A DNA stretch of 9,188 bases from a virus (Duplodnaviria; Heunggongvirae; Uroviricota; Caudoviricetes): the IMG/VR virus record IMGVR_UViG_2711768069_000008; one strand, 5' to 3'. Below, piece after piece: positions 6,483 to 9,188 of this stretch; position 1 is the first letter of the stretch, and every line of letters begins with the position of its first letter. The position numbers were made by a program, and so were the translations under genes. Below the pieces are notes generated by a model. That model was given only the letters and a program-made list of their open reading frames with translations, was not told the origin of the DNA and ran no database searches.

Positions 6483-7357
6483 GCGGCAACACCTCCGATA
6501 CGAGAACGGTAGCTGGGCCAGTTAAACGACAACCAGTTGCGCCCGCCATCGGTGATCCTGTCGACAATCCGGGGACTGATGAACGCCCACAATTCTTCCG
6601 GTGAAAGGTTGCTGATCAAGATAGTTGGCAAAATACCCTCATACCGGGCATTGATAATTTCCTGCAAAATGGCCATTTCAGCCGCACTGCCAAACTGAAC
6701 GCCGACTTCGTCGATGATCAGCAAATCCAGTGACGCATAATGCTCAATGACGTCATCCGCTGTTTTTTCACTGTCATTCCGCCAGCAGTTTTTCACAGCA
6801 CGGGTAAGGCGCATCACGTCGGTGATCTCCACACTGGCCAGATAGTTACGGATGATGTGTTTTGCCATTGATACCGCCAGATGATTTTTCCCGGTACCGC
6901 AACTGCCGGTCATAACAAGACTGGTACCGTTCTCCAGCATATCTGGCCAGTTCTCCACATAGCGGCGACAGGCCGCAAGATTTCTGGCTGCGTCAGGATT
7001 AACCTCCAGATAATTATCAAACTCGCAGTCCCGAAAACGCAGAGCAATTCCGGCGTTATCAGTCAGTTCTTCCGCCTTGAGGGACGACAGCTCCATGGTC
7101 AAATCGTTGGCCTCAGCTATCAAGCAGTCAGGGCAGCATGAAATTTTTTCTCTGTCCTCGCCATTACGATCGCTCCACACCAGAATATGTGTGTGGTATT
7201 CGCCATGTTTTTCGCAACACCCGCGCCCTTCACGCATCCAGCAGGAACGATAAGGCCATGGCTTTTCGCCCTTCTGAGCAAATGCAATCTCTGCCCGTAA
7301 CTCATCCATCCGCGCCTGTAGTCTTGTTTGTTGTTCACGCAGGTTAAACGTCATCAT
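6479..7357 (-). CDS. DnaC-like AAA+ helicase loader with N-terminal Cys/His-rich extension
   Basis: Walker A GSCGTGKNHLA (compare E. coli DnaC GTGKNHLA) and Walker B DLLIIDEVGVQ. N-terminal C..CC..H..H..CC..C cluster. Likely start is the ATG at 7357 (GAGG 8 nt upstream); the ORF track's GTG at 7366 is the alternative. Confidence 0.85.
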   Translation of the reverse strand: MMTFNLREQQTRLQARMDELRAEIAFAQKGEKPWPYRSCWMREGRGCCEKHGEYHTHILVWSDRNGEDREKISCCPDCLIAEANDLTMELSSLKAEELTDNAGIALRFRDCEFDNYLEVNPDAARNLAACRRYVENWPDMLENGTSLVMTGSCGTGKNHLAVSMAKHIIRNYLASVEITDVMRLTRAVKNCWRNDSEKTADDVIEHYASLDLLIIDEVGVQFGSAAEMAILQEIINARYEGILPTILISNLSPEELWAFISPRIVDRITDGGRNWLSFNWPSYRSRIGGVAA

Positions 7358-7367
7358 CTCTGTCACC

Positions 7368-8276
7368 TCAGAATGTCAATTTGTCACTGGATTTACCGAA
7401 TTTGTCAGACATGGCTCCCAGGCCAGCCAGGACATCGACCTGTCGCTGTCGCCCACCTCCGGGAGCAGATGGCTGTTGCCATGATTCGTCAAAGTGTCGA
7501 TCGGGGCCAAAGAACGTCGACGCCTGCTTCACGAACTGAGTGCCGGTATTTCCTGAGACACGCACCCAGGCGGCATAGCGTTTCACACCGTTGAGCATGG
7601 TTTCGGGTGTCACACCTTCCCTGATTCGGGCTTTCCAGGCTTTGAAGGCTGCTGACTTGGAATTACCACCAGCACGTTTGGGATATTCCTGCCAGGCCTG
7701 TTCAAATTCCGGTGAATATTCCTGTCGGGCAGAACGTGCTGGTGCAGACGCGTCAGCGGATGCGCCAATAGTGTTTTTACTCTCTGTAGTATTCTCTGAA
7801 GTAATCTCTGTTGTATTCTCTGTAAGATCGAAATTGGTTTTCCCTTCTCCGCGGCGAGGGGTTTCCCGTGTCCGCGGTGAAGGCTTTCCCTCCTCCGCGA
7901 AATTGGGTTTTACAGTTTCCCGAAAACGGGTTTCCCCATTTCGGGAAAACTGATTGTTTTCATTGATAATTTCATTAAGGCGCTCACAATCTATACGGTA
8001 GAACATTTTGTGCTCAAGACGCTTGTTGGTTTCAACCAAAATGCCTCTGGACACAAGATGCTTACGCGCTACAGCCTGTTGTTCAAATGTAAGTCCTGTT
8101 TCGTGTTGTATCTCTTCACGCGTTTTATGTACGCCTTCCGCTGCATGTGCTTTATCCTGCCAGTAAAAAATCTGACCAAAGAAAATAACAGCGTGCGGAC
8201 TTCCCATGTATTTAACGAGCCCAGGGTAATAAGCAACCGGATGTCCAAAATCGAGCAGAAGATCAGACGGACGCAT
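7368..8276 (-). CDS. replication initiator / replisome organiser (lambda O-like role) containing an internal iteron array
   Basis: About 302 aa from the ATG at 8276 (GGAGGTG upstream). Sits immediately upstream of the DnaC-like and DnaB-like genes. The central low-complexity linker (ENTTEITSENTTESKNT...) is encoded by tandem DNA repeats, as in lambda O where ori lies inside the gene. Confidence 0.65.
   Translation of the reverse strand: MRPSDLLLDFGHPVAYYPGLVKYMGSPHAVIFFGQIFYWQDKAHAAEGVHKTREEIQHETGLTFEQQAVARKHLVSRGILVETNKRLEHKMFYRIDCERLNEIINENNQFSRNGETRFRETVKPNFAEEGKPSPRTRETPRRGEGKTNFDLTENTTEITSENTTESKNTIGASADASAPARSARQEYSPEFEQAWQEYPKRAGGNSKSAAFKAWKARIREGVTPETMLNGVKRYAAWVRVSGNTGTQFVKQASTFFGPDRHFDESWQQPSAPGGGRQRQVDVLAGLGAMSDKFGKSSDKLTF
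7778..7980. repeat. putative origin of replication: 4 x 12-bp tandem repeats, 3 x 23-bp phased iterons, an inverted repeat and an AT-rich tract
   Basis: 12-bp units start at 7778, 7790, 7802 and 7814 (TAnTCTCTGnnG). 23-bp iterons have TTTCCC at 7839, 7862 and 7885 (consensus TTTCCC-nnn-TCCGCG-nn-GA-n-GG). Inverted repeat CAGTTTCCCGAAA (7913-7925) / TTTCGGGAAAACTG (7940-7953), then AT-rich 7953-7980. Confidence 0.55.
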
Positions 8277-8496
8277 AGCCACCTCCCAGGCGTTTAAACA
8301 TTTTTCCGGACTGAAACGCCACCAGCGGATAACTCAGGGTATGAGTACGCCCCTGCACCTGGCAGACAACCTTCTGACTTTCTGCATTGACCAGGCAAAC
8401 CCGCAGAACGTGGCCGTTGCTGGTGGTGAACCACTGCCCCACACGGGGGCAACGGTTGTATCGGTGATACAGGGAATTAACGATGTAGCGGATCAT
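8263..8496 (-). CDS. small hypothetical protein (77 aa)
   Basis: Strong RBS GGAGGTG 5 nt before the ATG; ATGA overlap with the upstream ORF stop; overlaps the start of the O-like gene by about 14 nt. Confidence 0.45.
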   Translation of the reverse strand: MIRYIVNSLYHRYNRCPRVGQWFTTSNGHVLRVCLVNAESQKVVCQVQGRTHTLSYPLVAFQSGKMFKRLGGGYASV

Positions 8497-8687
8497 GGAC
8501 GCACCTCCGCCGTAGTTACGTATTTAACTGGGCTACCTTTCATTGAGATGGTTTCACACATCCCTGCCGCTTTCAGTTCCGCCGTTTTTCTGGATTTATA
8601 GCGACGATGCCAGACAGATACATCCGTGCGAACTGATACATCGTTTCTGTATTCCGTAGTGGAGATGATGATTTCGTAACTAATCAT
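8493..8687 (-). CDS. small hypothetical protein (64 aa)
   Basis: Strong RBS AAGGAGGT 6 nt before the ATG; ATGA overlap with the upstream gene stop. N-terminus MISYEII resembles that of the next small ORF (MIRYIVN). Confidence 0.5.
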   Translation of the reverse strand: MISYEIIISTTEYRNDVSVRTDVSVWHRRYKSRKTAELKAAGMCETISMKGSPVKYVTTAEVRP

Positions 8688-8989
8688 GGGTGCACCTCCT
8701 TGTCAGAACCATTCAGCCTGTAATCAACAAGTGCAGCACCAAAAACTGCATCACCTACACGGTCGTACAGTTTGCCAGCCAGCGGAGATTCAACGGCCTT
8801 AAGCATTGGATAAAGCTGGCTTGTCCAGATTTGGTGGATTTCTCGCAAATGCAGGTATACGCCTCTGGCGTTTTGTGCGACAGATGGCATATCAGCCGCA
8901 CCAACTCCTGATAAGCACCTCTCCATCTGGTTAAAGGCATTGATGTATGCTTCTTTGAACCGGGCAGCACGTTTACCCGTGAAACCCAT
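8684..8989 (-). CDS. Rha/antirepressor-like phage regulatory protein, C-terminal portion (gene apparently disrupted upstream)
   Basis: The ATG-initiated ORF gives MGFTGKRAARFKEAYINAFNQME... The same frame continues upstream without a start codon (...SEYTDASGRKLPCYQITRDGFAFLA-MGFTGK...) up to an in-frame TAA at 9107-9109. The TRDGF..L.MGFTGK..A..K.AYI.AFN pattern resembles Rha-family proteins as I recall them. No RBS before the ATG at 8989. Confidence 0.4.
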   Translation of the reverse strand: MGFTGKRAARFKEAYINAFNQMERCLSGVGAADMPSVAQNARGVYLHLREIHQIWTSQLYPMLKAVESPLAGKLYDRVGDAVFGAALVDYRLNGSDKEVHP

Positions 8990-9106
8990 AGCAAGAAACG
9001 CAAAACCGTCGCGGGTGATTTGGTAACAAGGGAGTTTGCGGCCTGATGCGTCGGTGTATTCACTTAACAGTAAGCGTGCAGCAAGAACCGTATTGACGGG
9101 GATGTG

Positions 9107-9188
9107 TTATTCAGTCGGCAGTGCTACGCGCCAGGGGAGCAGTTCGCCGACCCGGTTTATCGGCCAGTCGGCTATGACGTCAAGGACA
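9107..9188 (-). CDS. 3' end of an upstream ORF in the same frame as the Rha-like ORF (partial, runs off the window)
   Basis: Open frame from the window edge (...VLDVIADWPINRVGELLPWRVALPTE) ending at TAA 9107-9109. May be the N-terminal part of the same gene, split by a nonsense codon. Confidence 0.25.
   Translation of the reverse strand, partial: VLDVIADWPINRVGELLPWRVALPTE

Follow-up and report, generated by a model that had tools for sequence, protein, structure and literature searches.

In phage lambda, the N-domain of the initiator O binds the iterons of the origin, and its C-domain binds P. In lambdoid phages, the origin is found midway along O and combines iterons with an AT-rich region, and O proteins also bind AT-rich single-stranded DNA (PMC7466680); the unwinding elements of oriC, lambda and plasmids hold short tandem repeats, often 13-mers, some of which are bound by the initiator as single strands (PMC10797057). 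In the lambda record, four iterons are annotated at nucleotides (nt) 349-433 of the O gene and are followed by the AT-rich region ACACAAAAGACACTATTACAAAAGAAAAAAGAAAAGATTATTCG, and the rep_origin of phage P22 (NC_002371, 32840-32984) corresponds to nt 353-497 of gene 18, with TCGGTAAAA iterons, two copies of ACAAAAGACAATA and a G/C palindrome. Here, we describe a candidate for such an element in 9,188 nt of DNA from a virus of the Caudoviricetes (IMG/VR record IMGVR_UViG_2711768069_000008; this whole stretch is called the window below), where the gene of an O-like replication initiator contains an array of 23-bp iterons followed by tandem AT-rich 12-mers (Table 1). With a probability of roughly 80%, we take the segment 7775-7950 to be a theta-type replication origin of the lambda/P22 type, situated within the linker-coding middle of its own initiator gene. 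This reading is based on conservation at the level of DNA, on the covariation of the iterons with the N-domain of the initiator, and on an order of elements that matches the origins annotated for lambda and P22.

A candidate origin of the lambda/P22 type

Counted along the initiator gene, the iterons occupy nt 327-448 and the 12-mers nt 449-502, which is the position and order seen in lambda and P22. As in the lambda origin, the iterons are spaced by about two helical turns in the middle of the initiator gene and encode a linker, and they are followed in the direction of transcription by a repeat region that is AT-rich and, on the coding strand, purine-rich; specificity for the iterons goes with the N-domain and that for the partners with the C-domain, again as in lambda (PMC7466680). 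Lambda, however, has four dyad-symmetric iterons of 18-19 bp, whereas the window has five units in exact 23-bp phase, which are mostly direct and of another sequence. Also, the C-domain of the window initiator is unrelated to that of lambda O, and its partners would be a DnaC-like loader and the phage's own DnaB-like helicase, while P of lambda hijacks DnaB of the host. Phage P22 resembles the window in that iterons and then tandem 13-mers lie in the initiator gene 18, with the gene of a phage DnaB-like helicase (gene 12) downstream, but the iterons and the N-domain of P22 are unlike those of the window, P22 has no gene for a DnaC-like loader, and the G/C palindrome behind the P22 13-mers has no counterpart in the window. 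Iteron plasmids (RK2 oriV, F, R6K and pSC101) have a winged-helix initiator, as is predicted for the window, and share with it iterons of ~22-23 bp and 12-13-mers in an AT-rich element (PMC10797057); in those plasmids, nonetheless, the iterons are intergenic and Rep has two winged-helix domains, the window differs further in having no DnaA boxes, and the likeness to plasmid Rep proteins that was observed consists of weak fold matches.

The segment presents the sequence features of this class of origin, namely phased iterons between the domains of the initiator, an AT-rich region downstream and covariation of the iterons with the N-domain; as for an unwinding element, tandem AT-rich repeats of 12 bp (12-13 bp in relatives) stand beside the putative initiator sites and are conserved at the DNA level. 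An origin inside the initiator gene is the textbook lambda paradigm, and the surprise to a specialist is small. What is new, as far as the searchable literature shows, is the identification of a candidate origin in the Eru7 group of Shiga-toxin (Stx) phages, the definition of an iteron grammar for the initiator family of the window, and the breadth and DNA-level conservation of the AGAnTAC element described below.

Table 1. Coordinates of the candidate origin, the initiator and neighbouring genes in the window (aa, amino acids; ORF, open reading frame; pLDDT, predicted local distance difference test)
Feature	Position	Strand	Details
Iteron array	7829-7950		five 23-bp units in exact phase; ~codons 110-150 of 302
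Iteron unit	7925-7947		TTCCCGAAATGGGGAAACCCGTT (coding strand)
Iteron unit	7902-7924		TTCGGGAAACTGTAAAACCCAAT (coding strand)
Iteron unit	7879-7901		TTCGCGGAGGAGGGAAAGCCTTC (coding strand)
Iteron unit	7856-7878		ACCGCGGACACGGGAAACCCCTC (coding strand)
Iteron unit	7833-7855		GCCGCGGAGAAGGGAAAACCAAT (coding strand)
Terminal TTCG of iteron array	7829-7832		overlaps GATC 7826-7829, leads into the 12-mers
Inverted repeat	7916-7948		arms 7916-7930 and 7934-7948; 15-nt arms, 87% complementary
GATC (Dam site)	7826-7829		junction of last iteron and 12-mers
Four tandem 12-mers	7775-7828		ACAGAGAATACA / ACAGAGATTACT / TCAGAGAATACT / ACAGAGAGTAAA (coding strand); core AGAnTAC, 67% AT
AT-rich tract	7951-7985		69% AT; encodes last N-domain helix (…RLNEIINENNQ)
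O-like replication initiator gene	7368-8276	minus	302 aa from ATG 8276; alternative GTG 8282; ORF list and translation
Predicted winged-helix N-domain of initiator	7953-8276	minus	aa 1-108; AlphaFold2 model
Disordered linker of initiator	7725-7952	minus	aa 109-184; AlphaFold2 pLDDT ~30
Helical C-domain of initiator		minus	aa 185-~260 (helical in model: aa 189-255); AlphaFold2
DnaC-like helicase loader gene	6479-7366	minus	directly downstream of initiator; Pfam IstB_IS21 2.5e-14, Bac_DnaA
DnaB-like replicative helicase gene	5082-6482	minus	Pfam DnaB_C 8.7e-74, DnaB N-terminal domain 1e-5
ORF in AT-rich insertion	1995-2936	plus	313 aa; DUF6731, E 1.8e-10
ORF in AT-rich insertion	2940-3383	plus	147 aa; no Pfam or PADLOC match

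Iterons and 12-mers in the window

A first-pass annotation of this DNA had proposed a probable origin here, composed of three precisely 23-bp-phased iterons, four 12-bp tandem repeats, an inverted repeat and an AT-rich tract, all within the initiator-like coding sequence, and all four features do lie at the stated coordinates within this gene, which is on the minus strand, with either start codon. The exact phase of the iterons was confirmed as well, but their number was not, the array comprising five units. Tandem Repeats Finder reported a period of 23 at 7839-7899, and TTTCCC recurs at 7839, 7862, 7885 and 7931, with a degenerate TTTTAC at 7908. Self-identity at a lag of 23 reaches 0.67 over the 115 nt from 7836, against a maximum of 0.50 in 500 dinucleotide shuffles; TTTCCC/GGGAAA is present six times in 125 bp, against three at most in 1000 shuffles, and there are 18 copies of GGTTTCCC, with one mismatch allowed, where 7.8 are expected. 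On the coding strand, the units follow the grammar TTCSSGRA-nnn-GGGAAAnCC-nnn. The inverted repeat is also present but is not a separate element: it is formed by the oppositely oriented sub-motifs TTCCCGAA (7917) and TTCGGGAA (7940) of iteron units 5 and 4, each of which occurs once in the window. As DNA, this repeat is able to form a hairpin (z -3.1), and the "terminator" match in our scan of the window for promoters and terminators, which found nothing above chance, is this same inverted repeat. No other part of the array is conserved as widely as the TTCCCGAA/TTCGGGAA pair, which is kept in Burkholderia, Pasteurellaceae, Acinetobacter and Klebsiella phages.

Iterons of plasmids have roles in control (PMC5397158), and the array might likewise consist of sites through which the O-like protein acts in autoregulation, copy-number control by handcuffing or the exclusion of related phages, with the true origin elsewhere in the phage. 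The window covers 9 kb of a phage of ~46-49 kb, and there is no DnaA box near the candidate origin, the total count of such boxes being that expected by chance; both points would suit such a role in control alone. Nonetheless, the layout is that of lambda and P22, the origins of which have been assigned to the initiator gene (PMC7466680), a pure control function would have no need of the adjoining conserved AT-rich repeats, and no other iteron cluster was found within the 9-kb window. We therefore consider it quite improbable that the array serves control only.

As for the 12-bp repeats, the four copies that had been claimed are indeed present: TCTCTGTAGTAT with up to two mismatches starts at 7781, 7793, 7805 and 7817, Tandem Repeats Finder reported 7781-7824 (period 12, 3.7 copies, score 67), and self-identity at a lag of 12, 0.78 at 7775, exceeds every one of 500 dinucleotide shuffles (maximum 0.64). 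The 12-mers are among the least stable parts of the initiator gene. At their junction with the last iteron, the sequence TTCGATCyTACAGAG is conserved in the Enterobacterales relatives (our loci L014-L022, L003, L005 and L011), including genes with unrelated iterons, but its GATC is absent in Pasteurellaceae, which have TTCGTTAAT instead, and in Burkholderiales, which have GTCGTTA. By analogy with oriC, this GATC is a possible control point for Dam and SeqA.

On the other side of the iterons, the AT-rich tract 7951-7985 exists as had been noted, but it is not a conserved AT-rich element; its equivalent in Burkholderiales relatives is 57-72% GC. While only one other stretch of the gene is comparably unstable (the least stable at a window size of 30 nt is 7947-7977), the tract ranks only within the top ~3-10% of the window. 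We judged it the less likely unwinding element, as it becomes GC-rich in GC-rich relatives and the 12-mers do not.

Conservation of the repeats among relatives

Homologues of the N-domain (the N-terminal 109 aa) were collected by two routes, namely tblastn against phages (77 records, 26-100% identity) and a pattern scan of 185,579 species genomes (30 loci). These 30 genome loci together with five phages make up a set of 35 loci, in which the N-domain has 43-85% amino-acid identity and the genera include Yersinia, Morganella, Proteus, Serratia, Burkholderia, Paraburkholderia and Caballeronia and, furthermore, several Pasteurellaceae, Snodgrassella, Vitreoscilla, Acinetobacter and Suttonella. 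Truncated proteins made up most of the result when the N-domain alone was used in a word-indexed protein search, and a full-length search and tblastn were more useful.

The period of 23 recurs at the same place in most of these relatives: over the 140 nt that follow the N-domain, autocorrelation is highest at a lag of 23 in 30 of the 35 loci, and in 31 the locus-wide maximum at lag 23 falls at gene nt 255-350, immediately behind the N-domain. Once aligned at the terminal TTCG, units from every locus share their register and the sub-motifs TTCSSGRA and GnnAAAnnC, with copy numbers of 2-7, and the last iteron is directly followed in 34 of the 35 by two to four tandem 12/13-mers with the core AGAnTAC. 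Indeed, nearly every AGAnTAC of each 3-kb locus falls in this element, the period of which is 12 in Enterobacterales and Burkholderiales and 13 in Pasteurellaceae and Neisseriales (ACACTAGATTACA, two copies). The whole grammar, 23-bp units TTCSSGRA…GGGAAAnCC and then AGAnTAC 12/13-mers, is conserved in ~30 of the 35 loci and spans Enterobacterales, Burkholderiales, Pasteurellales, Neisseriales and Acinetobacter. Comparison with the origin regions of related phages, which the first-pass annotation had suggested as a check, thus revealed the same iteron grammar in relatives, in an order as in lambda and P22, and this comparative evidence supports its proposal of a probable origin inside the O-like gene that mirrors lambda.

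The same annotation had noted that the repeats encode a low-complexity linker, which agrees with the disorder predicted for this segment (Table 1), and the repeats might then be a mere by-product of T-E-x-T and G-K/R-E-T peptide repeats with no function as DNA. The 12-bp period is a multiple of three and yields TENT/TEIT/SENT/TESK, and D..TE.T.E.T.E is invariant in the protein alignment, even across different types of N-domain. A period of 23 bp, however, places successive copies in three reading frames, so that the GGGAAA core is read as EGKT, RETP and EGKP, and the 13-bp period of Pasteurellaceae and Neisseriales likewise shifts the frame between copies and gives a different peptide in each (TLDY versus TRLH). 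Also, translation of TTCCCGAA-N-TTCGGGAA gives F-S-R-N in the window and, in a different frame, I-P-E-R in Acinetobacter phage WCHABP12. In Burkholderiales, furthermore, the 12-mer element is 38-50% GC with a third-position GC content (GC3) of ~0.22, whereas the loci are 58-67% GC and the genes have a GC3 of 0.66-0.83; threonine codons end in A or T in 37 of 38 cases within the element versus 17 of 103 in the rest of these genes (Fisher 1e-19, a generous value given that the loci are partly related). Because of these frame shifts between copies and between relatives and of the A/T-ending codons in GC-rich hosts, the repeats are best regarded as DNA elements, conserved as DNA and not as protein. 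On the evidence of frames and codons, peptide repeats as the sole explanation were rejected; we consider this explanation highly improbable and effectively excluded.

Since the 12-mers stay AT-rich everywhere, which the tract 7951-7985 does not, and since they occupy the position of the AT-rich region of lambda, they appear to be the better candidate for unwinding, and we lean slightly toward the view that they act as an unwinding or helicase-entry element. Their distribution is wide. The 40-nt island 7790-7829 has 97.5% identity in otherwise dissimilar O-like genes (2501-2540 in both L011 and L003), including that of a Qin-like prophage of BL21. A 361-bp query (7700-8060) has matches in 1632 of 5426 complete E. 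coli genomes, but 80% or more of the query is present in only 101 of these, and among the matches listed most are confined to the island. The 12-mer pair ACAGAGAnTACnnCAGAGAnTAC was found in at least 120 IMG/VR contigs; among the matches listed, 23 is the best period just upstream of the pair in 96 of 118 scorable contigs, and the pair is combined there with two multi-member clusters of N-domains and at least eight multi-member clusters of C-domains. At 35% single linkage, the N-domain types of the window, mEp460 and P0059 form one superfamily. The AGAnTAC element is common to a superfamily of putative origins that is very large, occurs in phages and prophages of beta- and gamma-proteobacteria and has many iteron specificities.

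Similarity to other phages, on the other hand, tends to start or stop at the 12-mers: it covers only 7368-7770 in phiP27, only 7790-7829 in mEp460 and 7700-7824 in an E. coli prophage. The 12-mers are thereby also located at a boundary of mosaic modules, which may reflect a second role rather than an alternative. They could even be mainly a conserved recombination joint, at which modules of N-domain plus iterons and of C-domain plus helicase are swapped, with unwinding taking place at 7951-7985; besides the boundaries just listed, this would fit with phage Stx1_14040, in which 41 of the 43 differences lie in the C-terminal part of the gene, below 7770, with the single N-domain superfamily that is joined to at least eight C-domain clusters, and with the low stability of 7947-7977. 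The element nonetheless persists in Burkholderia, Snodgrassella and Acinetobacter, where its sequence has diverged but its core, tandem structure and position are kept, and such distant persistence is hard to explain by recent recombination alone. The 12-mers, moreover, stay AT-rich against the genomic GC content, while the upstream tract does not. We regard it as unlikely that recombination is their main role, noting that a joint and an unwinding element are not mutually exclusive.

Beyond mere AT-rich DNA or a recombination joint, the AGAnTAC 12/13-mer might tentatively be viewed as a sequence-specific signal for origin opening or helicase loading, although we hold this to be rather doubtful at present. 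Candidates for reading such a signal are the initiator, through binding of single-stranded DNA, and a conserved host factor. If true, the AGAnTAC repeat would be the phage counterpart of the oriC 13-mers or of the DnaA-trios.

The iterons themselves vary together with the N-domain. The initiator gene L17 of phiP27 shares only its C-terminal half with the window (91% nucleotide identity over 7368-7770) and has another N-domain, with TTCAGAWTCTGAA palindromes and two copies of CTTGCGGATCATGTTTTRAA at the same place; mEp460 and the Qin-like BL21 prophage have 23-bp units of a different sequence with the core TCAAAATG, and a third type of O-like gene has AACGGAACA repeats. In these sequences, the iterons travel with the N-domain, which is the classical lambdoid pattern. 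In Pasteurellaceae members of the window N-domain family, the C-domain is of P22 type and the right half of the putative origin, ATACAAATACCCCC..GGGG, resembles that of P22. The right end that they share with the P22 origin, ATACAAATACCCCC(TTACCCCC)nAAGGGG, lies at gene nt ~430-470 in an Aggregatibacter locus (L034) and at gene-18 nt 470-497 in P22 (L164), and the number of CCCCCCTTA repeats varies, being four in L034 and two in Aaphi23. In the phiP27 record (L002, NC_003356), positions 3001-3927 encode a helix-turn-helix initiator with quite different repeats, and the DnaC-like and DnaB-like genes are 91-95% identical to those of the window. The "P27" of Kozlowska et al. 2020 has a lambda-like O protein and six lambda-type iterons; this discrepancy with phiP27 is a name collision or a different isolate.

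The initiator, its proposed partners and the phage group

The initiator was modelled by AlphaFold2 with an alignment of 24 sequences as input. Residues ~20-108 of the N-domain were modelled confidently (pLDDT 76-86) as H-H-H-beta-hairpin-H, with a wing hairpin at 80-95 and a last helix, and the disordered residues 109-184 are exactly the part encoded by the candidate origin, the repeats themselves encoding residues ~110-170. In PHROG, where families are defined by clustering, the protein matches replication initiation protein/O-like families (E 1e-65 and 1e-36). Among relatives, a P22-type C-domain is followed by a DnaB-like gene in all eight loci, and the window-type C-domain is followed by a DnaC-like gene in the window, phiP27 and BcepIL02; this covariation with the next gene fits a role of the C-domain in recruiting the helicase or the loader. 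The initiator relatives P0023 (277 aa) and P0025 (267 aa) have natural in-frame deletions that remove iteron units 4-5 and the end of the N-domain, which may stem from prophages that are defective or from collapse of the repeats during assembly. Also, short-read contigs appear to break inside the repeat region of the initiator, because many database copies of the window initiator are "partial" proteins of 114-161 aa.

The following scheme would be consistent with these data. After derepression, the O-like protein would be made from rightward early transcription, and its predicted N-terminal winged-helix domain, as suggested by fold, covariation and analogy, would bind the five 23-bp-phased iterons. 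Binding through the two sub-motifs of each iteron (TTCSSGRA and GGGAAAnCC) would build a nucleoprotein complex similar to the O-some, the strain of which would open the adjoining AT-rich 12-mers, which come after the iterons as transcription runs, just like the AT-rich region of lambda. The C-domain would then recruit the phage DnaC-like loader and DnaB-like helicase to the opened DNA, as gene order and covariation of the C-domain suggest.

Several observations weigh against an origin at 7775-7950. The initiator has no match in Pfam (E<=0.01) or NCBIfam, including none to Phage_rep_O (PF04492), and hhalign detected no sequence similarity between the N-domain alignment and lambda O (probability 0.3%); because of this, the analogy to lambda O is regarded as architectural only. 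Foldseek of the N-domain against the PDB gave generic winged-helix matches, among them DnaD-N (2v79) and a plasmid Rep-DNA complex (5kbj), none of which is significant (best E 0.04). In iteron units 1 and 2, the left sub-motif is replaced by CCGCGG, so that not all of the five units need be bound, and the instability of the AT-rich elements is no more than moderate (top ~5% of the window). Mapping of single-nucleotide polymorphisms against Stx phages of 95-98% identity was uninformative, as these are too similar in the N-domain and the candidate origin to measure constraint, and the variation among such close Stx relatives reflects mosaicism. Our literature search found no experimental work on the origin of the window phage or of members of its N-domain family, and a second origin could lie in the phage outside the 9 kb of the window.

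The phage group of the window is evident from its neighbours. In 20 Stx1/Stx2-converting phages, the "replication protein O" gene has 95-98% identity to its O-like gene, one of these phages being Stx2_14040 (LC567818, the type phage of Eru7; 97.8% across 7450-8282), and the window as a whole is 98% identical to Eru7-type Stx phages. These phages have the same gene order, namely O-like, DnaC-like, DnaB-like, DUF968 protein, Q, methylase and stx. In the Eru scheme, phages are typed by two genes adjoining cI, which in Eru7 encode Rha proteins; Stx2_14040 is the representative of Eru7, Eru7 is reported to be the most widespread type of Stx phage in Europe, and the paper that defined it states that the replication of Eru phages and the proteins involved are entirely uncharacterized (PMC8951638). 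No origin or iterons are described in the papers defining the Eru types (PMC8951638), and our literature search for a described origin in Eru phages or Aaphi23 found none. Given that Shiga-toxin output depends on phage DNA replication (PMC7466680), it is of interest that Eru7 gains a concrete replication module of O-like initiator, DnaC-like loader and DnaB-like helicase, together with a candidate origin of ~175 bp with defined iterons and a candidate unwinding element. The family grammar, TTCSSGRA-starting 23-bp units and then AGAnTAC 12/13-mers, furthermore provides a simple rule for annotating origins in many prophages and may explain the breaks of short-read assemblies within initiator genes.

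On the minus strand of the window, the early-right operon runs through Rha-like fragments, small ORFs, the O-like, DnaC-like and DnaB-like genes, a DUF968 gene, Q and the methylase; the DnaC-like gene also matches DnaC of NCBIfam (3.6e-37), although this falls short of the curated cut-off. At its right end (8684-9188), the window has only C-terminal fragments of Rha/antirepressor-type domains (Phage_pRha and P22_AR_C); genes of this type are those that define Eru7 in the Eru scheme, and their products probably have no part in replication. An AT-rich insertion of ~1.5 kb (1900-3400, with stretches of 80-90% AT) separates the methylase gene from Q and carries two plus-strand ORFs, opposite to the operon. 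The insertion is missing at this site in Stx2_EH2201, in which the gap between methylase and Q is 565 bp versus 2045 bp in the window, and it looks like a moron or accessory island.

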